This document shows, in pieces, positions 5,164 to 16,664 of a stretch of DNA of 64,000 nucleotides. The position numbers were made by a program, and so were the translations under genes. Position 1 is the first letter of the stretch. Every line of letters starts with the position of its first letter. Source of the stretch: Escherichia coli (GTDB lineage: Bacteria > Pseudomonadota > Gammaproteobacteria > Enterobacterales > Enterobacteriaceae); the NCBI RefSeq assembly GCF_024502345.1, contig NZ_JALDNN010000001.1. The stretch is one strand, 5' to 3'. The notes below the pieces were generated by a model. That model saw only the letters and a list, made by a program, of their open reading frames with translations. It was not told where the DNA came from and searched no databases.

Positions 5164-5466
5164 TTATTTTTTGTTCTGATCGCGCAGCATCGCCTCACGT
5201 AAAATTGCGTTCAGGCGAGTTTGATAGCCTTTACCAGGTCGCTTCAGCCATTCCATCACATCAGCATCAATACGCACCGAAGCCTGGGTTTTCAATGGCC
5301 GATAAAACTTACCGCGTTCTGCGTTAGACCATTGCTCATCGCTGGAAGGCGGGATATCACTGTAATCAATATCTTCGTCGGATTTATTCGCCAGTGCCTT
5401 CAGTTCGGCCTCATGCTGCACATCGAGTGTAGAGGGTGTCCCTCGTTTATGTTTAACCATGCTCAT
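5164..5466 (-). CDS. BrnA-like ribbon-helix-helix antitoxin-family protein (orphan; no BrnT gene seen)
   Basis: Track ORF 5164..5532; likely start at MSMVKHKRG with AGGAG RBS. C-terminal VRIDADVMEWLKRPGKGYQTRLNAILREAM matches my memory of the BrnA/COG3514 signature. Confidence 0.55.
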   Translation of the reverse strand: MSMVKHKRGTPSTLDVQHEAELKALANKSDEDIDYSDIPPSSDEQWSNAERGKFYRPLKTQASVRIDADVMEWLKRPGKGYQTRLNAILREAMLRDQNKK

Positions 5467-5604
5467 AGCGACTCCTCTCTTTACGATCTGCTTTTCGTGC
5501 ACTGATGATTCGAATGTTGGAAATAGCATCACGTTTTAGGAAAAGATGGGGAAGTTGATATGAAGGGGCTGGATGGCAACATTGGGACACCATCCAGCAC
5601 TTAT

Positions 5605-6339
5605 TCAAACCTGATAGCAATCCACCAAAAATGCCATCATTTCACTGGCATCTTTGCTGTGATAAAAGCGCACCATTTTGCTGTTGAACTCCAGCGCACG
5701 AGCCGCGGGTACACTAATGGGATTGTAACCGTGGCGCATTAACCAGCCGTTCATCATATGGCGACTGGTACGCTTGTTGCCATCAAAGAAAAACTGATAG
5801 TAGGCTCCAAAAAGGAACATCGCCAGCGCGCCTTCAAACGGGGAAAGCATTTTAATATGCGCGACACCCTCAGCAAAAATGCGATTCAGTTCAGGTGCAC
5901 CTGCTTCAGTGGCTGGTGGAAAATGAGTGCCCAGTTCACCGAGATGAACGCGGGCATTGTAATGTAACTCCTCACCTTCGCCGCGAAAAACGCCCCACTC
6001 CAGCGCCTCATTACGCGCAATAATGCCGTTAAGTAACGTGAACGTTTTCTTATCAAGGTCGAAACGCCCGGATTGCACAAGTTCAATCAGTTTTTTTGCG
6101 CTATCTGCCAGGTTCAACACCTGCTCTGTGTCACTGACCTTATGCCCGCCAATGGTGACACCATCGAGCAGCGTTTTAACTTCAACAAAGGTATAGGGGT
6201 TATTTTCCAGTTGCGCGGCATCCCAGACAAACCCAGCCATATGCGTTTTGAAGGTAAATAAGGCTGCGCGCGTACCGACAATTTGCATCGCCGGGATGGC
6301 ATTTGCATTCCAGCTCAGGTCCAGTAGTTTGGTTGTCAT
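5605..6339 (-). CDS. Fic/Doc (Fido)-fold-like protein with a non-canonical active-site motif (QFFFDGNKRTSR)
   Basis: 244-aa ORF with AAGGA RBS 8 nt upstream. ...AYYQFFFDGNKRTSRHMMNGWL aligns position-for-position with the Fic HPFx(D/E)GNGRxxR and Doc HxFx(D/N)(A/G)NKR motifs, but Gln occupies the catalytic His position. Family assignment by eye only. Confidence 0.5.
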   Translation of the reverse strand: MTTKLLDLSWNANAIPAMQIVGTRAALFTFKTHMAGFVWDAAQLENNPYTFVEVKTLLDGVTIGGHKVSDTEQVLNLADSAKKLIELVQSGRFDLDKKTFTLLNGIIARNEALEWGVFRGEGEELHYNARVHLGELGTHFPPATEAGAPELNRIFAEGVAHIKMLSPFEGALAMFLFGAYYQFFFDGNKRTSRHMMNGWLMRHGYNPISVPAARALEFNSKMVRFYHSKDASEMMAFLVDCYQV

Positions 6340-6382
6340 TAGAGGATCCTTGATTGCATGGTAAAGAGGATATTATTCCATA

Positions 6383-6568
6383 TTAAACCATCGCGTTATC
6401 CATCTGCTTTTCAAATGCCTGACGAATTAATCCCATCACATAAGGAAGCTCAGAAAGATCGCTGAAACCTACTTCAACATCGCCATTGCCCCAACGGCTT
6501 ATATCTGAGACGTCACGAGCAATACCTTTCGGATCGATCAATTCATGGAATGGCATGTTTAGCGTCAA
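6383..6568 (-). CDS. Small hypothetical protein (57-61 aa) between the GmrSD-like and Fic-like genes
   Basis: ORF whose TTG start overlaps the upstream gene stop by 4 nt (alternative ATG 12 nt downstream, MPFHELIDPKG...); no strong RBS; same strand as flanking genes. Coding status uncertain. Confidence 0.35.
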   Translation of the reverse strand: MTLNMPFHELIDPKGIARDVSDISRWGNGDVEVGFSDLSELPYVMGLIRQAFEKQMDNAMV

Positions 6569-8481
6569 ATGTAATCGTTTTTTTGCGGCACTGCATCAAC
6601 AAAATTCGTCTCCGCTTTGAAGGCAACATAGAGCTTCAATATTTCTCGCGTAACCCCAGCGTCCAGCGCCATAACGGCATCAGAAAGGCTGTCAAAAAGT
6701 ACGCGGATATGTGTACCTTCTTCAAGTTGCGGGAAATCAGCAAGGACATATCCCGTTCCTCGTTCAACGACGGTGCGATAACGAGCCAACACGTCTTCCG
6801 AAAGTTTGGGGATCGCCCAGACGTCTATTGCCAGCTCGGCCAGACGTTCCGCTCTCTTTTGTATCGCTGCACGATCCCATATTTCACATTGCCCTAACCC
6901 CGTGTTCAGGCGTAATGGACTTTCCTTAAAGCCACCTTTTATATCTCGTTTCTTCGCAAATGGACGGTCGCTGTAGCTTGAGTTATAGCCAGTTAACGTT
7001 AAATTACCCAACGTATGGAGCCACTTTTTATGGATTCGCTTCCATTCCGGACCAAGGTCATCGCGCCACTTCGCCGATAAATTAGGGTTCTGCGGCATGA
7101 TATGTTCAATCGTATATTCGTCTACGCAGACCCGTTCTTTACGACCGTGGTTTTCAAATCTGCGTAGCCAATAGCTGCGATTACGGAAGTTGTAGAGGTC
7201 GCGAGTTTTCAGTTCACGTTGAAATTCATCATCATCCGGGAAACGACGGTAGGAAGGCAGTTCCAGCAAATGCGCCGCAATGCTCTCCAGATAACGCTCT
7301 TTATCCAGCACTTTGTAAAACGTGGCGAAGGTTTTGGTAAATGAGTTGGTGGGAATGGCACAGACTGCGCGCCGGAAGATATACGACTCAATTAAACGCG
7401 TGGCACTTAAAAAATCCGCGGCAGAAAGGATCCCCTGTTTATAGTCGTGATAAAGCACCAACAGGAACGGCCATGCAGCATCAACTTTCAGCTGGCGTAG
7501 ATCCTGAAACGCCATCTTTAAGGTTTTATCCTTTTCGCTATCCAGCGCCATCGCACAAAAATAGTCAGCAAACGTACGAATATCCGCAACCAGCGCCTCC
7601 ATCCCGCTATCCATCACTCCTGGTTTTCGCGCATAGCGTTTAAAGGCTTCATAGACATCACCAATTCGCGGAATCTCACCTGTTTTTACCGTCAGGTAAT
7701 TACGCATAAAACTGTCGAAATAGTCAGTGTATCCCTTCTGACCAAATGCCAGCTCCATGGGCCGCCAGTAATCGTCGTACAGTTGGCTTTGATGTTCTGG
7801 CTCCAGCCCCATCAGAACATAGTTGCGTACCAGATCCGCCTGACTCAGCGCTTTTCCTGTTGAGTTCATGCTTTCAAAGATTAGTTGCGGATTATCCTGA
7901 CCGCGATTCAAGGCGACATCCACAATAAGCAGTTTGGAAAGTCCCTGACATAACGCGGTGAAATTGCCGTGGAGTTTGCCTATTTGCTCATGGAAAAACT
8001 CAAAATTCTCTTTCACGCGTAGAGAGCAATTTTCTGCCAGCGGTTTTTGTCTAATCAATGCCAGCAGGCTTTCTCTGTCCGTTTGCGTAAGCAGTAACTT
8101 AAAACCACGCTCGCCCGATTCATACGGATTGAGCAGATAATAGTTTCGTAATTTCATGGCGGAGAAACCATCCATCACCTCGTCATCACCAAGATGTCTG
8201 GACAACGCTTCCAGCAATAACATCGCCGTTGTTAGGCGTTGCTGACCGTCAATCACCAGTAAGGGAGAGATCCCCGAAACCTGATATAGGCCCTGTTCGA
8301 TATACACCACCGAGCCGATAAAATGCGCCGGGATATCATCACGCTGCCCGGCACGTATTACATCGTCCCAGAGCTGGCGGCACTGTTCCTCTGACCATGA
8401 ATAAGTACGCTGATAAATGGGAATAACGAATTGCTGAGAGCGTTTAAGAAAATCGAGTAATCGGGCTTCGGTGGCTTTCAT
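6565..8481 (-). CDS. GmrSD-family Type IV (modification-dependent) restriction endonuclease, single polypeptide (DUF262 + DUF1524)
   Basis: 638 aa; N-terminal FVIPIYQRTYSW and DGQQRLT motifs (DUF262/ParB-like NTPase); C-terminal EYTIEHIMPQ...HTLGNLTL...N His-Me finger signature (DUF1524); AGGAG RBS 7 nt upstream of the ATG. Confidence 0.8.
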   Translation of the reverse strand: MKATEARLLDFLKRSQQFVIPIYQRTYSWSEEQCRQLWDDVIRAGQRDDIPAHFIGSVVYIEQGLYQVSGISPLLVIDGQQRLTTAMLLLEALSRHLGDDEVMDGFSAMKLRNYYLLNPYESGERGFKLLLTQTDRESLLALIRQKPLAENCSLRVKENFEFFHEQIGKLHGNFTALCQGLSKLLIVDVALNRGQDNPQLIFESMNSTGKALSQADLVRNYVLMGLEPEHQSQLYDDYWRPMELAFGQKGYTDYFDSFMRNYLTVKTGEIPRIGDVYEAFKRYARKPGVMDSGMEALVADIRTFADYFCAMALDSEKDKTLKMAFQDLRQLKVDAAWPFLLVLYHDYKQGILSAADFLSATRLIESYIFRRAVCAIPTNSFTKTFATFYKVLDKERYLESIAAHLLELPSYRRFPDDDEFQRELKTRDLYNFRNRSYWLRRFENHGRKERVCVDEYTIEHIMPQNPNLSAKWRDDLGPEWKRIHKKWLHTLGNLTLTGYNSSYSDRPFAKKRDIKGGFKESPLRLNTGLGQCEIWDRAAIQKRAERLAELAIDVWAIPKLSEDVLARYRTVVERGTGYVLADFPQLEEGTHIRVLFDSLSDAVMALDAGVTREILKLYVAFKAETNFVDAVPQKNDYI

Positions 8482-8756: not shown

Positions 8757-11111
8757 ATGCTTTTTATGTCATCAACTAATTTCAGTCAGATCGCAGCCTT
8801 CCTGTGGTCTGTCGCCGACCTGTTACGCGGCGATTTTAAACAATCCCAATATGGGCGAATTATTCTCCCTTTCACTCTTCTTCGTCGTCTGGAATGCGTA
8901 CTCGAAACAACGAAAGACGCGGTCATTGCCGAGGCGCAAAAAGTAAAAGCCATGAAACTGCCGGAGGAAGCCCAGGAGAAAATGATCCTGCGGGCGACTA
9001 ATGGCCTCACGTTCTTTAATGCCTCAGCAATGGATCTCAGCAAAATGGGGCAAAATGGCATACAGGACAACCTGGAAAACTACATCCAGTCGTTCTCTTC
9101 GGATGCCCGCGAAATTTTCGAACACTTCAAGTTCAGCGAGTTTGTCGGACAGCTGGCGGATGCGAACTTACTGTTCAAAGTGGTGCAAATATTCGCTAAA
9201 GCAGATTTATACCCGGAGCACGTCACCAACCACGATATGGGGCTGGTATTTGAGGAGCTGATCCGACGTTTTGCCGAGAGTTCTAACGAAACCGCGGGGG
9301 AGCACTTTACCCCGCGTGATATCGTCAATCTGACCACCTCGCTGGTGTTTTTCGATGATGATGACGCGCTCAATAAAGACGGCATCATCCGCACCATTTA
9401 CGATCCAACGGCAGGAACCGGCGGCTTTCTCTCCTCCGGCATGGAGTTCGTCCACAAACAAAACCCCAATGCCGTGATGCGCGCGTTTGGTCAGGAGTTA
9501 AACCCGGAATCCTACGCCATCTGTAAAGCCGACATGCTGATTAAGGGCCAGGACGTCAGCCTTATCAAACTCGGCAACACCCTGTCCAACGATCAGCTCC
9601 CCGCAGAAAAATTCGATTACATGCTTTCTAATCCACCTTTCGGCGTGGACTGGAAAAAGATAGAAACCGACATCATCAACGAGCACAAACTCAAAGGTGC
9701 CGATGGTCGATTTGGCCCCGGCCTGCCCCGCGTCTCCGACGGTTCGTTGCTGTTTCTGCTTCACCTGATCAGCAAAATGCGCGATGCCAAAAGCGGTGGC
9801 GGGCGGATCGGCATCATTCTTAATGGTTCGCCGTTATTCACCGGCGGTGCAGGAAGCGGTGAAAGCGAGATCCGCCGCTACATTCTGGAAGCGGATTTGC
9901 TGGAAGGCATTATCGCCCTGCCCACCGACATGTTTTACAACACCGGTATCGCTACCTATGTGTGGATTTTGTCGAATAAAAAAGCGCCAGAACGCAAAGG
10001 CAAAGTCCAGCTTATTGACGGCAGCAACCTGTGCGGCAAGATGCGTAAATCGCTGGGGTCAAAACGCAATATTCTCGGAGACGAGGATATTGGTTTAATC
10101 ACCCGCACGTTTGGCGATTTCGAACCCGTTGCCACCACCACGCTTGCGGCGTTAGGCCTGGAGAAAGCACCTGAACAAAAATCCAGCCGGGGACGCCAGC
10201 CCGCAACAACCAAAACCGAGGCGGCAAAAACCTTTGCCAGCAAAGTCTTTCACAGCACCGAGTTTGGCTATCGTCGCATCACCGTTGAGCGCCCGTTACG
10301 CCTGTCGGCTCAGATCACCGATGACGCCATTGCCACATTACGCTTTGCGCCGAAGCCGTTTAACGCGCCGATGGCACAACTGTATGACGCCTTTGCTTTC
10401 CAGTGGCAGGACGGTAATTACGGCGACTTAACAGCGCTAGAAAGTGAAGCCCGCGCCATTCTTAAAGCCGATTTTAGCGAGCTGAAAGAGAAGCAAATTA
10501 AAGATCTGCTCGACAGCAAATTATGGCTGGCCCAGCGCGGATTAATGGAAAAAGCGCGGCGTATTCAGGCGGCGATGGGTATGCAGGCGGGCGGCAAAGA
10601 CACCGTTAGCAATAACTTTAATCTGTTCCAGTTGACGCTGAAAGAGGCGTTCAAAACCGCAGGCGTGAAGCTGGATGCGAAAGAGAACAAGCAGTTTATC
10701 GATGCCATCACCCGCAAAAACCCGGATGCCGAGCCGGTAATCAGCAAGGTACTGAAAGAGGCGGCCCAACCGCTGTATGGCGCGTGTGAGTACAACGGAA
10801 AGGTTGTGGAGTTTGAACCGGATGGCGACCTGCGCGATAACGAGAATGTACCGTTAAATCCGTCTGTATCTACCAGCGAGTTGATCGAGGGTTACTTCAA
10901 AGCAGAAGTGTTGCCGCACGTTGCGGATGCGTGGATTAACGCCGATAAGCGCGATGCGAAAGATGGGGATATCGGGATTGTGGGGTATGAAATTCCGTTT
11001 AATCGTCATTTTTATGTTTATCAGCCGCCAAGGCCGCTGGAGGAGATTGATGCGGATCTGGATGCGGTAAGCGCTGAGATTATGAAACTGTTGCAGGAGG
11101 TACATTCCTGA
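8757..11111 (+). CDS. hsdM: Type I restriction-modification system DNA methyltransferase subunit HsdM (long form, about 780 aa)
   Basis: NPPFG catalytic motif ([12 protein letters not shown]), AdoMet motif region ([10 protein letters not shown]), HsdM-like N-terminus ([31 protein letters not shown]). Alternative start at 8766 (MSSTNF) has better RBS spacing. About 270 aa C-terminal extension beyond a typical HsdM. Confidence 0.85.
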
Positions 11112-12385
11112 TGGCAGGGTTAAATAAATATCAGGCGTATCCGGAGTATAGGGATTCTGGGGTGGAGTGGTTGGGGGAGATTCCTGCTCATTGGGAAACG
11201 TTACAGCATAAATACGTCGCATATTATACTAAGGGCAAAAATCCTTCTTTTTTGCTCGATACCCCAACAAAGAACACCCTACCTTATCTTTCTATGGATT
11301 GTTTAAGAAATAACTCCATAGATAAATATGCTATAGTATCTAATGATATTCGTATTGCATTAGAGGGACAACCACTTATTATTTGGGATGGTTCTAATGC
11401 TGGGGAATTTGTCAAAGGCCGAAAAGGTATTTTATCCTCAACGATGGCCTCTGCAACGCTTAATTATCCTTTGCACATGCAATATTACTGGTATTTATGC
11501 ACTGCAATTGAATCTGAAATGCGTAAACATGCAAATGGTATGGGTATCCCTCATGTAAATGGAGAAGAATTAAAGAACATTCATCTAAGTATCCCTTCAA
11601 TAACCGAACAAAAAAGCATCGCTGGTTTTCTTGAATTTGAAACAACGAAAATTTCGAACCTTATAGAAAAACAACAACAACTAATTGAATTACTAAAAGA
11701 AAAACGTCAGGTCGTGATTAGCCATGCGGTCACAAAAGGGCTAAATCCTGACGTGCCGATGAAAGATTCTGGGGTTAAGTGGTTGGGGGAAGTTCCAAAA
11801 CACTGGCACATATGCAAGTTAAAATGGTTTGCTAATTTGAAAAGTGGTGATTTTATAACCAGCAATTCAATAGAACCAGAAGGAAACTATCCTGTATATG
11901 GTGGAAATGGATTAAGAGGATATTATTCTTATTTTACACACAATGGTGAATATGTTCTTATTGGTAGACAAGGTGCTCTTTGCGGAAATATAAATTACGC
12001 AATTGGAAAGTTTTGGGCTTCAGAACATGCTGTTGTTGTCACCCCAAACGAAAGAGCTGTTACAATATGGTTAGGAGAATTATTAAGAATAATGAACTTA
12101 AACCAATATTCAGTTTCTGCTGCACAACCGGGGCTTGCGGTTGAAAGAATTACTGATTTATATATTCCAATCCCACCATATCAAGAGCAAATAAATATCG
12201 GAACTTATATATCTAAATATATTTCTCTAGATAAAAAATTGATTGAGCATAGTACAGATAATATTGAACTCCTCAAAGAACGCCGCACCGCCCTTATCTC
12301 CGCCGCCGTCACCGGCAAAATTGATCTACGCAACTGGACCGCGCCCATCCCCGAAGCGGAAACACCCACGGAGGCCAGCGCATGA
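11111..12385 (+). CDS. hsdS: Type I restriction-modification specificity subunit HsdS (two target-recognition domains)
   Basis: Start overlaps hsdM stop (TGATG). Two repeated conserved segments (DSGVEWLGEIPAHWE / DSGVKWLGEVPKHW) each followed by a variable, AT-rich TRD; conserved central and C-terminal coiled regions (LIEKQQQLIELLKEKRQ / LIEHSTDNIELLKERRTALISAAVTGKIDL). Confidence 0.85.
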   Translation: MAGLNKYQAYPEYRDSGVEWLGEIPAHWETLQHKYVAYYTKGKNPSFLLDTPTKNTLPYLSMDCLRNNSIDKYAIVSNDIRIALEGQPLIIWDGSNAGEFVKGRKGILSSTMASATLNYPLHMQYYWYLCTAIESEMRKHANGMGIPHVNGEELKNIHLSIPSITEQKSIAGFLEFETTKISNLIEKQQQLIELLKEKRQVVISHAVTKGLNPDVPMKDSGVKWLGEVPKHWHICKLKWFANLKSGDFITSNSIEPEGNYPVYGGNGLRGYYSYFTHNGEYVLIGRQGALCGNINYAIGKFWASEHAVVVTPNERAVTIWLGELLRIMNLNQYSVSAAQPGLAVERITDLYIPIPPYQEQINIGTYISKYISLDKKLIEHSTDNIELLKERRTALISAAVTGKIDLRNWTAPIPEAETPTEASA

Positions 12386-15300
12386 GCCACGACATTACAA
12401 AAGAGGTTAACCTGCAAAACGACATCATCGCGCAGATGGTGGAAAAAGGCTGGATTGTCGGCAAAGGTGACGGCTACGACCGGGAACGTGCGCTATACGC
12501 ACAGGATACCTTAAACTTCGTGCAGACCACTCAAACGCAGGAGTGGGAGAAATTCGCCCGCGTTTACCCTAACGACCCAGAGCGCCATTTCCTCGACGCG
12601 CTGGTCGCGCAGCTTAAAAAAGCCGACAGCAACGCCACCGATATCCAGTCGCGCACCTGGGGTACGCTCGGCGTACTTCGCCACGGTCTGAAAATCCGCA
12701 ATGCCCGTTTTTCGCTGTGCCAGTTTAAACCGGAACACAACCTCAACCCGGAAACGCTGGCGCGCTATCAGCAAAATATCTGCCGTATCGTGCCGGAACT
12801 GGTCTACAGCCCTTATGCCTCAAATAGCGTCTTTGCAGAAACGGGCGTGAAAGCCAAAAAATGGCGCATCGACCTTGTGCTGTTTATCAACGGCCTGCCA
12901 ATTGCCACGCTGGAGCTGAAATCCGAATTTAAACAGGCGGTGCAGAACGCCATTGCGCAGTACAAAAAGACCCGCCTGCCGAAAGATCCCGCTACCAATA
13001 AACCTGAACCGCTGCTGGCCTTTAAGCGCGGGGCGCTGGTGCATTTTGCCGTCAGCCAGTATGACGTCTTTATGACCACCAAACTCGCAGGTGACAGCAC
13101 CTTCTTCCTGCCGTTTAACAAAGGCACCAAAGAAGGCGGTGCAGGCAATGAGATCCCCGAAGATACTCGCCGCTACGCCACCGATTATCTGTGGAATGAA
13201 GTGCTGCTGCCGGACAACTTATTAAAAATCCTCGCCAGTTTTGTCCATTTGCAGATTGAAGAAAAAGAGGAGTGGAACGGGCTGAAAGCGAAGAAAGAGA
13301 GCCTGATTTTCCCGCGCTATCACCAGTGGGATGTGGTCAACAAACTGCTGGAGGCTGCGACGGTCGAAGACACCGGCCATAAATACCTGATTCAGCACAG
13401 CGCAGGTTCCGGAAAGTCGAACTCCATTGCCTGGACCGCCCACCAGCTCTCTCGTCTGTACGACGCAAACGGGGAAAAACAGTTCCACTCCGTTATCGTG
13501 GTGACAGACCGCACGGTGCTGGACGACCAGCTTCAGGACACCATCTGGCAGTTCGAACATGCCGACGGCGTGGTCGGGCGCATCAATAACAGAGAGGGCG
13601 ACGGCTCTAAATCGGAAAAGCTCGCCAACGCGCTGGAAAACTCGCAACCGATTATTATTGTCACCATCCAGACGTTCCCGTTCGTATTGAAAGCTATCGA
13701 AAACAGTGTCAGCCTGAAGCAGCGTAAATACGCGGTAATCGCCGATGAAGCGCACTCCTCGCAGAGCGGTTCTACCGCCCGTCAGCTCAAAGAAGTGCTG
13801 ATGAGCGAAGAGATGGATGATGACGTGGTACTGTCGTCAGAAGATATTCTGGATGCGACCATCGCCGCACGGAAAGGTAGCAGTAACCTGAACTACTATG
13901 CCTTTACCGCCACGCCCAAATCCAAAACCCTGGAACTTTTTGGTCGCCGTCCACGTCCCGATGAACCGGCGTCAAAAACCAATAAACCTGAGGCCTTCCA
14001 CGTCTACTCCATGCGCCAGGCAATCGAAGAAGGCTTTATCCTCGACGTGCTGAAAAACTACACCAACTACAAAGTGGCGTATCAGTTGCTGCAAAAGCTG
14101 GAAGATGAAGACCGCGAAGTCGATAGCAAACGGGCGAAGGTAAAACTCAATCAGTGGGTGACACTGCACGACCACAATATCTCGCAGAAGGTGAAGGTGA
14201 TTGTGGAGCACTTCCGCAAACATGTGATGCATCTGCTTGGCGGCCAGGCTAAAGCGATGGTGGTCACCAGTTCACGCAAAGCCGCCGTGCGCTATAAGCT
14301 GGCATTTGATAAATACATTAGCGAGAACAATTACCAGAAAATCAGCGCGATGGTGGCGTTTTCCGGGGAAGTTGAATTCCGGGAAGGCGACCCTAACAGC
14401 CTGGCATTGTTAAACCAGAAATTTACTGAAATAAACATGAACCCCGGCCTGAAAGGACGGGATATGCGCAAAGCCTTCGACAGCGACGATTACCAAGTCA
14501 TGCTGGTCGCCAATAAATTCCAGACCGGTTTTGACCAGCCGAAGCTGTGCGCGATGTACGTGGATAAAGCCCTCGGCGGCGTCGAGTGTGTGCAGACGCT
14601 CTCCCGCCTGAACCGCACCTATCCGGGCAAAGCGGAATCTGGCACTTTTGTCCTCGATTTTTATAATGATCCGGACGAGATCCTCGGCGCATTCCAGCCC
14701 TATTTCCAGACGGCGGAACTGACCGATGTCAGCGATCCGCAGCAGGTATTCGATCTGTTTGAAAAACTGCGCGCCACGCAGATTTTTCAGTGGCATGAAG
14801 TCGAGCAGTTCTGCGAGGCATACTTCATCAAAAATAAATCGAATGCGGCGATCAGTAATATTTGCAAACCGGCGGTCGAACGCTGGAAAAAGCGTTATCT
14901 GATGGCGATAGACGCCTATTTGACCGCCAAAGAGATGTTCGAGCGCACCAAAAAAACGGGCGATACAGTATTAATCACCAATGCGGAAAACAGTTTTAAA
15001 GCCTGTAAGCAGGAGAAAGATCGTCTGGAAATATTCAAAAAAGATCTCGGCAGCTTTGTTCGTTTTTATGAATTTATGTCGCAGATCGTTGAATACGATG
15101 ACAAGGATCTGGAAAAGCTAAGCCTGTTTGCTCGTCATCTGCGTCCGCTGCTGCATGAGCAACGTCTGGAAGATGATGAAATTGATCTCAGTAATGTGGA
15201 GATGAGTCACTATCGTTTATCGAAAATCCATGAGCAAGATTTACGCTTACAGGAAGAAACGCCTGACTATACGCTGGATGCAAGTAATAATATTGGTACG

Positions 15301-15645
15301 GCAAAAGCGAAAGATAAAAAAGAGGAGTTTTTATCTCAGGTGCTTTCTCGGATGAATGAATTATTCATTAGTGACCATTTGACCGACAAAGATATGATCA
15401 GCAATGCTTTTTCGGTGTATAACAAAATAACTGAAAATGAAAATGTTATGACACAAATTAAAAACAATCCCCCAGAACAAGCGATTCTTGGTGATTTCCT
15501 CCAGGCAGTTGATAATGCTGTAATGGACAGTAATGACGCTCGGCAAGAATTCATGTTGCAATATTTATCCGATCCAGCTCGGGCAAAGGGCTTTGCTTAT
15601 CTGATGTTTGATATGCTAACGGGGAAAATTGCTTTGCCAACATAA
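12382..15645 (+). CDS. hsdR: Type I restriction enzyme endonuclease/translocase subunit HsdR
   Basis: 4-nt start/stop overlap with hsdS (ATGA). N-terminal PD-(D/E)xK motif (RIDLVLFINGLPIATLELKS), Walker A (HSAGSGKSNS), DEAH box (VIADEAHSSQ). 1087 aa. Confidence 0.85.
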   Translation: MSHDITKEVNLQNDIIAQMVEKGWIVGKGDGYDRERALYAQDTLNFVQTTQTQEWEKFARVYPNDPERHFLDALVAQLKKADSNATDIQSRTWGTLGVLRHGLKIRNARFSLCQFKPEHNLNPETLARYQQNICRIVPELVYSPYASNSVFAETGVKAKKWRIDLVLFINGLPIATLELKSEFKQAVQNAIAQYKKTRLPKDPATNKPEPLLAFKRGALVHFAVSQYDVFMTTKLAGDSTFFLPFNKGTKEGGAGNEIPEDTRRYATDYLWNEVLLPDNLLKILASFVHLQIEEKEEWNGLKAKKESLIFPRYHQWDVVNKLLEAATVEDTGHKYLIQHSAGSGKSNSIAWTAHQLSRLYDANGEKQFHSVIVVTDRTVLDDQLQDTIWQFEHADGVVGRINNREGDGSKSEKLANALENSQPIIIVTIQTFPFVLKAIENSVSLKQRKYAVIADEAHSSQSGSTARQLKEVLMSEEMDDDVVLSSEDILDATIAARKGSSNLNYYAFTATPKSKTLELFGRRPRPDEPASKTNKPEAFHVYSMRQAIEEGFILDVLKNYTNYKVAYQLLQKLEDEDREVDSKRAKVKLNQWVTLHDHNISQKVKVIVEHFRKHVMHLLGGQAKAMVVTSSRKAAVRYKLAFDKYISENNYQKISAMVAFSGEVEFREGDPNSLALLNQKFTEINMNPGLKGRDMRKAFDSDDYQVMLVANKFQTGFDQPKLCAMYVDKALGGVECVQTLSRLNRTYPGKAESGTFVLDFYNDPDEILGAFQPYFQTAELTDVSDPQQVFDLFEKLRATQIFQWHEVEQFCEAYFIKNKSNAAISNICKPAVERWKKRYLMAIDAYLTAKEMFERTKKTGDTVLITNAENSFKACKQEKDRLEIFKKDLGSFVRFYEFMSQIVEYDDKDLEKLSLFARHLRPLLHEQRLEDDEIDLSNVEMSHYRLSKIHEQDLRLQEETPDYTLDASNNIGTAKAKDKKEEFLSQVLSRMNELFISDHLTDKDMISNAFSVYNKITENENVMTQIKNNPPEQAILGDFLQAVDNAVMDSNDARQEFMLQYLSDPARAKGFAYLMFDMLTGKIALPT

Positions 15646-15710
15646 AAATACGTTAATAGCCGGGGTCGCACTTTCTACCCCGGCCATATTATTTACAATA
15701 AGGAATAGCT

Positions 15711-16424
15711 ATGCTGAAGATGATTAAAGATTTTAAATTCAAAAAATACATTAAAAAATTACGTGAAGAAGGTTTGTTATTTTATGTTTCTTTCGGGTTT
15801 ATATTTACATTGTTAATGGAAGTTGATGATCGATTACCGTACTATCTTCAACAAGACTTCTTTTTTTATACACTTATAGGATTTATGCCAATCAATATAT
15901 TCTTTGTTTTGATTTGCACATATATATTTTTCAATGCCGTCCATGCGCTTATTTCACCATATAAATTTCAAAGAATTGGTGAGAAATTCCTCTCTGAACT
16001 TGATAAAAGAACACAACAAATTGGCTTTATTATTTCATTCATATGTTTTGGCATGACTTTGTTTTGTGCACTGGTGTGGTTGCTGTTTTTTGAAATGAAT
16101 ACTGAAAGTTACTACGCAAAATATACATTAAATTTTTTAGCTGCTTTTATCATTATGATTATAATTTCTTCAGTAGTTAATCCAGTAATGAACAGAACAT
16201 TCCAAAAAATGAAGGAATCGGACTCACATGGAAATTCAAAAATAATTCTTATAATTATAATCATTATATTGTTGCTATTATTACCAATTGCGTGCATTAT
16301 CAATAAAAATAAAACAATTGAAATCAATATTAAGAAAGAAACCTATCAGCAAATAAAAGAAAAAACAAAGATAAAACCAGAAGATTATATCAAAAAATTG
16401 ATTACTGATATTAAATTCAACTAA
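15711..16424 (+). CDS. Hypothetical AT-rich integral membrane protein (about 4 predicted TM segments, Lys-rich termini)
   Basis: 237-aa ORF 65 nt downstream of hsdR with AAGGAA RBS; strongly AT-rich; hydrophobic stretches (FYVSFGFIFTLLM, IGFMPINIFFVLICTYIFF, IGFIISFICFGMTLFCALVWLLFF, NFLAAFIIMIIISSVV, ILIIIIIILLLLLPIACII). No recognisable family. Confidence 0.6.
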   Translation: MLKMIKDFKFKKYIKKLREEGLLFYVSFGFIFTLLMEVDDRLPYYLQQDFFFYTLIGFMPINIFFVLICTYIFFNAVHALISPYKFQRIGEKFLSELDKRTQQIGFIISFICFGMTLFCALVWLLFFEMNTESYYAKYTLNFLAAFIIMIIISSVVNPVMNRTFQKMKESDSHGNSKIILIIIIIILLLLLPIACIINKNKTIEINIKKETYQQIKEKTKIKPEDYIKKLITDIKFN

Positions 16425-16428
16425 TATC

Positions 16429-16463
16429 TATATGTACCCTGGTTTCTTCCAGGGTACATATAA
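16429..16463. terminator. Perfect hairpin between the membrane-protein gene and convergent yjiS (possible bidirectional terminator)
   Basis: tatatgtaccctgg-tttcttc-cagggtacatata inverted repeat; no clean U-tract on the plus strand. Confidence 0.35.
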
Positions 16464-16499
16464 AAAGTTAATATCCTGATTTATTCTCAACATCCTCTA

Positions 16500-16664
16500 T
16501 TACTCCACATCCTCCCTGCTTAACCCAATATCCCTCAACCGTTCATCACTCATCTGCTGTAACACTCGTCGGGTCTGCATTTGCCGCCGCCAACGCCTCA
16601 CCGCATGCCAGAGTTGCACAAGTCTGATAAACGGCGTTTTGGCTTTGTTTTCGTGAAATTCCAT
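16500..16664 (-). CDS. yjiS: DUF1127-family small protein YjiS
   Basis: 54-aa ORF below the track cutoff, read by hand: MEFHENKAKTPFIRLVQLWHAVRRWRRQMQTRRVLQQMSDERLRDIGLSREDVE, GAGGAGG RBS upstream; conserved position next to yjiR. Confidence 0.6.
   Translation of the reverse strand: MEFHENKAKTPFIRLVQLWHAVRRWRRQMQTRRVLQQMSDERLRDIGLSREDVE

Follow-up and report, generated by a model that had tools for sequence, protein, structure and literature searches.

The DNA analysed here, a 64-kb stretch of Escherichia coli sequence referred to below as the window, contains a chromosomal hsdM-hsdS-hsdR operon, a Type I restriction-modification system of the E. coli Immigration Control Region (Table 1). 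The three genes are tightly packed, as the hsdM stop and hsdS start overlap by 1 nt (TGATG) and the hsdS stop and hsdR start by 4 nt (ATGA). According to the annotation of a RefSeq locus that is 99.8% identical to this one, the operon lies between yjiA and yjiS and adjoins GmrSD and BrnA. In the same annotation, which is that of the closest genome, the hsdM product is 781 aa long. The system is present in 116 of 5,426 E. coli genomes, and an exact look-up found the identical HsdS protein to be already public, on 75 contigs.

A recent review reports that the Immigration Control Region holds Type IA, IB and ID systems only, and that Type ID and GmrSD are equally frequent there, at 12% each (2025; PMC12707154). 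HsdM is far from the solved HsdM structures of EcoKI (Type IA, 3e-11) and EcoR124II (Type IC, 3.7e-26). Judging by location and neighbor genes, the operon probably belongs to the Type ID family: like the family of StySBLI, EcoR9I and KpnAI it lies in the Immigration Control Region, a likeness of location and not of alignment to these enzymes.

The hsdS product carries two Pfam PF01420 (Methylase_S) matches, at residues 27-191 (1.1e-12) and 229-386 (7.4e-18), which correspond to two target-recognition domains (TRDs); conserved helical regions lie between them, and the gene shares one operon with hsdM and hsdR. hsdS arose by duplication within the gene and is laid out as x-TRD1-y-x-TRD2-y. The two halves of HsdS align over their full length (24% identity, E=4e-11), and the C-terminal conserved region is the protein-level counterpart, designated y, of the central helix (IELLKEKRQVVISHAVTKG vs IELLKERRTALISAAVTGK). 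At the DNA level only 30/57 nt of the y pair are identical in the window allele; the two y regions of another allele, L005, are ~74% identical.

Table 1. Genes of the operon and segments of hsdS, in window coordinates. Segments were placed using allele alignment and base composition.
Feature	Position	Strand	GC	GC3	Description
hsdM	8757..11111	+	0.518		Type I methyltransferase subunit; 784-aa ORF; PADLOC MTase_I E=8.5e-280; NCBIfam hsdM
hsdS	11111..12385	+	0.386		Specificity subunit, 424 aa; two Methylase_S domains; PADLOC Specificity_I 5.8e-108
N-terminal conserved region	11111..11197	+	0.49	0.52	29 aa
Repeat x copy 1	11153..11184	+			GATTCTGGGGTGGAGTGGTTGGGGGAGATTCC, encodes DSGVEWLGEIP
TRD1	11198..11620	+	0.36	0.28	Variable, AT-rich
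Central conserved region, first part	11621..11707	+	0.28	0.10	Start of dimerisation helix, FLEFETTKISNLIEKQQQLIELLKEKR; most AT-rich stretch of the gene
Central conserved region, second part	11708..11809	+	0.51	0.56	QVVISHAVTKGLNPDVPMKDSGVKWLGEVPKHWH; holds repeat x copy 2
Repeat x copy 2	11765..11796	+			GATTCTGGGGTTAAGTGGTTGGGGGAAGTTCC, encodes DSGVKWLGEVP
TRD2 cassette	11798..12273	+	0.33	0.19	AT-rich
C-terminal conserved region	12275..12385	+	0.64	0.69	KERRTALISAAVTGKIDLRNW...
hsdR	12382..15645	+	0.498		Type I restriction/translocase subunit, 1087 aa; NCBIfam HsdR family 2.8e-53; PADLOC REase_I

Repeat x and the exchange of TRDs between alleles

A repeat search identified a single repeat family, composed of two direct 32-nt copies (28/32 identical) located 612 nt apart. 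This confirms the near-identical direct repeat of about 32 bp that a preliminary description of this DNA had placed at the start of each TRD. This spacing corresponds to exactly 204 codons, and each copy is read in the hsdS frame. The best pair of 32-mers in 300 codon shuffles of hsdS never exceeded 24/32, and the motif occurs only twice within the 64-kb window. The repeat exists because the same linker stands before both TRDs. In copy 1 the 5′ half lies within the N-terminal conserved region and the 3′ half forms the start of TRD1.

The preliminary description had proposed aligning hsdS alleles from related strains, and the alignment revealed the variation it anticipated: ten E. coli alleles have N-terminal, central and C-terminal blocks in common while their TRDs are wholly different, and the points at which alleles diverge fall inside or just past each copy of x. 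Among the 116 E. coli carriers, only 4 match the query region over 80% or more of its length, ~60 have TRD2 only, and ~50 have neither TRD. The TRD1 type of the window is rare in E. coli, and its closest relative outside Escherichia is found in Kluyvera (82-83% aa). The first part of the central region, 11621-11707, is 77% identical to other alleles, compared to 90-92% in the next segment, and departs in the window allele from the family consensus FLDHETAKIDNLIEKQQQ; the TRD1-type block therefore extends into the start of the helix.

The window TRD2, in turn, occurs together with six different TRD1 types. When compared to alleles L002 and L003, it is 99.1-99.4% identical, whereas the flanks are only 92-97% identical. 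Over 11798-12273, identity is 99.4-99.6% (2-3 mismatches in 476 nt) between alleles that differ by 4-8% in their flanks. There are 10 mismatches in 11690-11797; the last of this run is at 11797 and the next run starts at 12274, with ~5% mismatches beyond. The high-identity block thus begins where repeat x copy 2 ends. Near-identity of TRD2 between alleles whose flanks have diverged indicates that TRD2 was exchanged recently. Domain swapping at the conserved hsdS blocks is directly supported by these comparisons.

Related TRDs are also found at position 1 of some alleles and position 2 of others. The TRD1 of L002 (nt 43-580) matches the TRD2 of L007 (nt 673-1210) with 70.7% nt identity, and the TRD1 of L005 matches L005's own TRD2, likewise with 70.7% nt identity; in both matches, homology begins at the first base of x. 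With identities of ~70%, these position switches are, by their sequence divergence, old events.

By analogy with the established structure of Type I enzymes, the DNA target would be bipartite, with each TRD recognizing one of its halves, and the x linker (DSGVEWLGEIP) together with the y helix (ELLKE+R..IS.AVTGK) would hold the spacing of the TRDs constant and dock two HsdM subunits. The conserved modules are nearly identical among the alleles in the population and may serve as homology arms, such that recombination inside them would swap one TRD cassette and leave the rest of the operon untouched, giving a new specificity. Repeat x would mark the cassette border and, over long spans, may have let TRD types come to occupy either position. 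Because the y repeat is weak at the DNA level, a within-gene double crossover between positions would have poor homology on one side.

Possible recombination between the two copies of x

The preliminary description further proposed that the repeat offers a substrate for TRD swapping or deletion that would change specificity. The swapping part of this proposal stands, given the TRD2 shared among alleles with six TRD1 types and the breakpoints at x; deletion was not observed in the E. coli genomes searched. We looked in genome sequences for the half-length hsdS variants that it envisaged, using a query in which the last 400 nt of hsdM were fused to the first 400 nt of hsdR. Not one of 114 E. coli genomes had such a variant, as the distance from the hsdM end to the hsdR start exceeded 900 nt in all of them. 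All 114 gave two separate match places, and none therefore carries a deletion between the repeats; among the matches listed, spans were 2309-2445 nt. Neither one-TRD nor three-TRD alleles occurred at the locus in these 114 genomes, and single-TRD relatives occur in other taxa only. Several short proteins in the cluster of this allele were considered as candidate deletion products and rejected. P0002 (329 aa) comes from a gene of full length that has suffered a frameshift, P0265 (229 aa) ends at a contig end, and P0266, P0256 and P0264 were cut short by nonsense mutations or frameshifts.

The absence of deletion variants from these genomes is consistent with x being a by-product of protein constraint, that is, a linker needed for folding and contact with HsdM, with recombination from copy to copy playing no real role. 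Conservation of the x peptide motif reaches across phyla and extends to proteins with a single TRD, and the longest exact stretch common to the two copies is 13 nt. At the DNA level, the copies are not clearly more alike than the shared peptide alone would make them, since the chance probability of at least 5/8 identical codons is P=0.10. Furthermore, copy-specific differences (GTG vs GTT, GAG vs GAA) are retained across alleles, and the copies are therefore not being homogenized. Gene conversion between the copies, judged by codon identity, was rejected on these same two grounds. On the other hand, TRD types do occupy both positions, and their homology sets in precisely at x; in other species, TRDs have been documented to be deleted, duplicated or moved at repeats of this kind (Furuta et al., PMC3077401). 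Taking both sides together, we consider protein constraint as the sole explanation of x to be nearly as probable as its negation. This question bears only on copy-to-copy events; allelic exchange at the same blocks is undisputed.

The layout x-TRD1-y-x-TRD2-y with "domain movement" has been reported for hsdS genes of H. pylori groups 2 and 3, S. pyogenes and M. agalactiae (Furuta et al., 2011; PMC3077401). As in those genes, a repeat of ~30 bp precedes each TRD here (28/32 nt), alleles combine the TRD cassettes in different ways, related TRDs occur in both positions, and single-TRD relatives exist. In contrast to them, the y pair is alike here as protein only (30/57 nt), the center is without a tandem spacer repeat, the switches are old (~70% nt), and the 114 E. 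coli genomes hold no one- or three-TRD allele. In Type IA systems, crossing-over in the conserved regions of StySP and StySB gave the hybrids StySQ and StySJ (Loenen et al., 2013; PMC3874165), and the crossovers described here likewise lie in conserved regions and would create hybrid specificities. Half-length homodimeric S subunits are known from Type IC, namely the truncations of EcoR124I and EcoDXXI, and NgoAV (PMC3874165). In this HsdS, too, the central helix resembles the C-terminal one, as is the case in Type IC, so a single-TRD product might plausibly dimerize (PMC3874165). However, this operon belongs to a different family from the Type IA and IC cases, and the predicted 220-aa in-frame deletion product, which would join the N-terminal region to TRD2 and the C-terminal region in 663 bp, was not observed in E. 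coli.

Internal hsdS repeats are also the substrate of known phase-variable Type I systems, in which specificity is switched reversibly, in a programmed manner, within one cell line. It is exceedingly improbable that the repeats drive such switching here. They are direct rather than inverted, unlike those of inverting hsdS shufflons, and the motif has only two copies in 64 kb; the window contains no second hsdS copy or fragment, and none is annotated nearby. There are no simple-sequence tracts, and the hsdM-hsdR gap is of full length in 114/114 genomes. In a 26-kb stretch of a near-identical genome no recombinase is annotated except for an Rpn family gene, a recombination-promoting nuclease/putative transposase ~2.9 kb downstream of hsdR.

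Base composition of the TRDs

The composition of hsdS is far from uniform, ranging from a GC of 0.28 to 0.64 when computed per segment; the GC of the window as a whole is 0.491. The preliminary description had portrayed the gene as a mosaic with host-like ends and center and AT-rich TRDs. This holds for both TRDs and for both ends, but the center is host-like in its 3′ half only (Table 1). We recoded the same amino acids with the codon usage of hsdM and hsdR, which gave an expected GC3 of ~0.62. Relative to this expectation, z-scores of GC3 were -8.8 for TRD1, -11.5 for TRD2 and -5.4 for the central helix, while the remaining three GC-normal segments were within 1.5 sd of their recoded GC3. 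As GC3 falls far under the recoded expectation, the mosaic reflects codon choice and not amino-acid content alone. We also considered the GC3 of 0.69 in the C-terminal region as a sign of GC-biased conversion, an idea that was dropped because the value is within 0.6 sd of the hsdM/hsdR expectation.

One explanation for these differences, building on the acquisition from low-GC donors put forward in the preliminary description, is that the TRDs were fairly recently imported from a low-GC organism and that their donor composition has not yet been adjusted to the host. The difference in GC3 is large (0.19-0.28 in the TRDs compared to 0.61 in hsdM and hsdR), TRD2-type domains occur in many phyla, including on a low-GC metagenomic contig (L018, locus GC 0.34), and GC deviation of hsd genes has been taken as evidence of horizontal transfer in published work (PMC12255300). 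However, the TRDs of 11 E. coli hsdS genes and of Kluyvera, Klebsiella and Citrobacter all have a GC of 0.32-0.40, whatever their sequence type. Orthologues of TRD1 and TRD2 are present in the same operon family of Kluyvera and Citrobacter, with dS of ~0.9-1.0 and dN/dS of ~0.1, values comparable to those of hsdM and hsdR (dS vs Kluyvera: TRD1 0.93, hsdM 1.18, hsdR 0.79). Over this divergence composition has hardly moved: TRD1 GC is constant in three orthologues (0.357, 0.357, and 0.364), TRD2 GC is close between orthologues (0.327 vs 0.378), and polarized substitutions are about balanced (9 vs 7, 4 vs 4, and 29 vs 18). Moreover, relatives of TRD2 are AT-shifted against their own operon in hosts whose backbone GC3 ranges from ~0.2 to 0.9. 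In searches with the full-length protein and with a synthetic single-TRD protein, and in translated searches of plasmids for each TRD, near-identical TRDs were confined to the enterobacterial family; identity in the best matches beyond it did not exceed 68%, and among plasmids the best match came from a high-GC alphaproteobacterium. The claimed footprint of a low-GC donor is thus not supported, and we regard recent import from such an organism as unlikely.

Instead, on the sequences compared, TRDs of this hsdS family and its relatives are stably AT-rich, and the view that a recent low-GC donor left this composition as a mark now fading is not supported. TRD GC3 is lower than that of hsdM/hsdR by 0.07-0.43 in E. 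coli, Kluyvera, Klebsiella and Citrobacter as well as in five further hosts (backbone GC3 0.2-0.9), and in a sixth other host (L017) it is below that of the conserved hsdS flanks. In E. coli TRDs, the AT shift has been maintained across a synonymous divergence of ~1. A broader proposal, which we put forward tentatively and consider rather doubtful, is that in every host a general process, and not donor history, holds TRDs at a stable composition AT-shifted relative to their own operon. As a candidate for such a process, the conserved blocks may recombine constantly and so remain at host GC, while TRD types, being unable to recombine with one another, would form small, long-lived balanced lineages that drift to an AT-biased mutational equilibrium.

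A worked example of TRD exchange and composition

Modular hsdS genes, their recombination arms, TRD-flanking repeats and the atypical GC of hsd genes have been described since the hybrid Salmonella specificities of the 1980s and feature in current reviews. The present gene is of this known kind, a textbook modular hsdS whose layout and mechanism are published (PMC3077401, PMC3874165). Taken as a whole, the account given here, of a modular Type I hsdS in which conserved blocks act as exchange arms and the AT-richness of the TRDs is stable rather than the mark of a recent low-GC donor, is very probably correct. The locus has little importance of its own, and its worth is that of a worked example. 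It presents a freshly exchanged TRD2 cassette with sharp edges in a natural E. coli, and it demonstrates that, for TRDs, inferring a recent low-GC donor from AT-richness is unsafe. If a general process does hold TRDs at an AT-shifted composition, hsdS would offer a natural setting in which to test, inside a single gene, whether bacterial GC is shaped by recombination or by the efficacy of selection.

Operon and chromosomal setting

The window is E. coli chromosome, and its positions 10600-12900 match strain USDA-ARS-USMARC-49610 at 99.8%. In that strain the locus is flanked by btsT-yjiX-yjiA and yjiS-yjiR, the Immigration Control Region, and contains genes for a BrnA antitoxin, a Fic protein, GmrSD, hsdM, hsdS, hsdR and a hypothetical protein. 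The reading frames of the operon overlap, by 1 nt (TGATG) between hsdM and hsdS and by 4 nt (ATGA) between hsdS and hsdR, which suggests translational coupling. An identical HsdS protein is already present in public databases, on 75 contigs. According to a 2025 review, Type I systems of the Immigration Control Region are only IA, IB and ID, the region also has Mrr, McrBC or GmrSD together with brnAT, symE or rpn modules, and Type ID and GmrSD are equally frequent there, at 12% each (PMC12707154). The window HsdM is only distant kin to solved Type IA and IC proteins, and the operon probably belongs to the Type ID family.

Features of the operon and its surroundings (GC3 z-scores are relative to recoded sequences)
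Feature	Position	Strand	GC3	z	Remark
Fic-family and BrnA-type genes	5164-6339	-			Fic at 5605-6339
GmrSD	6382-8481	-			adjoins operon
hsdM	8757-11111	+			ORF; family searches agree
hsdS	11111-12385	+			424 aa; family searches agree
Repeat, copy 1	11153-11184				DSGVEWLGEIP
TRD1	11198-11620		0.28	-8.8	
Central helix start	11621-11707		0.10	-5.4	
Repeat, copy 2	11765-11796				DSGVKWLGEVP
TRD2	11798-12273		0.19	-11.5	
hsdR	12382-15645	+			ORF; family searches agree
Hypothetical gene	15711-16424	+			237 aa; in low-GC stretch 15251-16551

Several neighboring features were recorded in passing. The GmrSD gene has an apparent frameshift near its 3′ end: the window product ends AVPQKNDYI*, where a 99%-identical reference reads AVPQKKRLHLTLN and runs 61 residues further, giving ORFs of 638 aa in the window and 699 aa in the reference genome. 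The Fic-family gene lies immediately upstream of the antitoxin gene and BrnT toxin is absent; a Citrobacter locus has the usual BrnT-BrnA pair at the equivalent spot, and two distant Type I operons (L016 and L017) have Fic or RhuM/Fic genes within or alongside them. The hypothetical gene after hsdR is kept in Escherichia sp. E2748. Since PADLOC and NCBIfam searches returned no match for it and Pfam matches were weak and to membrane-protein families, its product is perhaps a small membrane protein that accompanies the operon. Several more long low-GC stretches (150-nt windows <0.38), among them 40676-43676, 47951-48526 and 50001-50951, fall beyond the part of the window analysed here.

Composition and repeat structure of hsdS

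The preliminary description presented hsdS as a mosaic of AT-rich target-recognition domains (TRDs) within host-like ends and centre. Recoding the same amino acids with hsdM and hsdR codon usage gave an expected GC3 of ~0.62. Both TRDs fall below this value, while both terminal blocks and the 3′ half of the central block stay within 1.5 sd of expectation. The mosaic is thus real at the level of codon choice, although the centre is host-like in its 3′ half only, because the start of its helix is depleted as well.

The ~32-bp repeat described at the start of each TRD was also confirmed. Its copies are identical at 28 of 32 positions, lie 612 nt (204 codons) apart and are both in the hsdS frame; the best 32-mer pair in codon shuffles of hsdS reached at most 24/32, and no third copy of the motif was found in the whole 64-kb window. 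The halves of HsdS align along their entire length (24% identity, E=4e-11). As the central block opens with a helix resembling the C-terminal block and continues as a linker repeating the N-terminal block, the gene has the layout x-TRD1-y-x-TRD2-y, with x the linker carrying the repeat and y the helix, identical to the scheme in which Furuta et al. depicted other hsdS genes (PMC3077401). The two x copies form a good repeat as DNA; the two y copies (30/57 nt) resemble each other as protein only.

We aligned 11 hsdS genes, comprising the window gene, nine E. coli alleles of the same system and the hsdS of L010, a related but more distant system. Apart from L004, whose N-terminus differs, and L010, whose central block is shortened, all have the N-terminal, central and C-terminal blocks in common; TRDs of different types are unrelated. 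DNA divergence between alleles begins within or just past each repeat copy (after GATTCTGGG, GAGTGG or TGGTTGG), so the 5′ half of x is part of the conserved block, and its 3′ half forms the TRD's conserved first strand.

Exchange and deletion of TRDs

Among 5426 complete E. coli genomes, the system occurs in 116. Four of these carriers match 80% or more of the 2.3-kb query, some 60 have only TRD2 in common with the window and some 50 have neither TRD in common with it. The swapping of TRDs that had been proposed is well supported. In the protein database, the window TRD2 type (98-100% aa identity) is paired with six different TRD1 types. Against two E. coli alleles (L002 and L003), TRD2 is 99.1-99.4% identical at the nucleotide level, versus 95.8% for the hsdM 3′ end, 92.1% for the central block, 95.5-97.3% for the C-terminal block and 93.6-94.4% for the hsdR 5′ end. 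The cassette edges are sharp, as ten mismatches in 11690-11797 give way to two or three in 11798-12273 and resume at ~5% from 12274 on; the left edge is the end of the second repeat copy and the right edge the opening codons of the C-terminal block. These comparisons are direct evidence for the transfer of TRD cassettes from one diverged backbone to another, apparently via crossovers in the conserved blocks.

Movements between positions 1 and 2 are old events. TRD1 of L002 (nt 43-580) matches TRD2 of the E. coli allele L007 (nt 673-1210) at 70.7%, as do the two TRDs of a third allele (L005) to each other, and both homologies begin at the first base of x. Kin of the window TRD2 occupy position 1 in several distant proteins.

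Elsewhere, the E2748 locus (L014, 5715-6990) has the same TRD1+TRD2 allele at 94.4% identity, in a likely pseudogene, since a 1-nt indel splits hsdS into ORFs of 101 and 329 aa; its hsdM and hsdR are intact. TRD2 (HsdS residues 230-368) aligns with the C-terminal recognition domain of PDB 7eew chain A (E=1.4e-17), a solved protein of 638 aa whose deposit describes it as a Type I methyltransferase subunit; its structure might be used as a template to predict the TRD2 half-site.

Deletion between the x copies, also proposed previously, is plausible; its predicted product is an in-frame 663-bp gene encoding 220 aa, but no such half-length allele occurs in the 114 E. coli genomes matching both flanks. 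Short proteins akin to the window allele result from frameshifts or nonsense mutations, or break off where a contig ends. Natural single-TRD proteins with matching x and y motifs and a TRD2-like domain were found in other organisms, one of them (P0219, 202 aa) within an intact hsdM-hsdS-hsdR operon. By analogy with Type IC HsdS truncations (PMC3874165), the 220-aa product would probably function as a homodimer. One 58.7-kb draft contig (GCA_013061765.1) stops at position 5686 of locus L022, equivalent to window 11796, the exact last base of the second repeat copy, and the truncated product also occurs on a second contig; an insertion element in TRD2, poor AT-rich coverage or a structural variant could account for this break.

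Base composition of TRDs

The AT-richness of the TRDs had been read as the footprint of low-GC donors. This reading fails several tests and is not supported. TRD GC is 0.32-0.40 in all 11 E. coli hsdS genes examined, irrespective of TRD type. TRDs of Kluyvera, Klebsiella and Citrobacter show the same, against 0.55 for their hsdM. For the Kluyvera orthologues, dS and dN are 0.93 and 0.093 for TRD1, 1.18 and 0.099 for hsdM, and 0.79 and 0.062 for hsdR; dS is 1.03 between TRD2 and its Citrobacter orthologue. Three TRD1 orthologues have GC of 0.357, 0.357 and 0.364, and polarised substitutions in TRDs are roughly balanced. As a separate observation, recent substitutions in hsdM and hsdR (window versus L014, outgroup L011) run ~2:1 from GC to AT (54 versus 27 and 87 versus 44, respectively).

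TRD2 kin in six other hosts all have GC3 below that of their own backbone (0.28 against 0.65 in L016, 0.09 against 0.21-0.30 in L018, 0.45 against 0.80 in L019, 0.53 against 0.69 in L020, 0.62 against 0.92 in L021 and, with the conserved hsdS flanks as backbone, 0.48 against 0.67-0.85 in L017). No near-identical TRD copy was found in other lineages by protein searches or on plasmids by translated searches. Taken together, the uniform TRD GC, the orthologue comparisons, the six hosts and the missing near-identical copies indicate that the AT shift is a stable, general property of TRDs. The feature seen in the window hsdS has been described before and is standard among hsdS genes.
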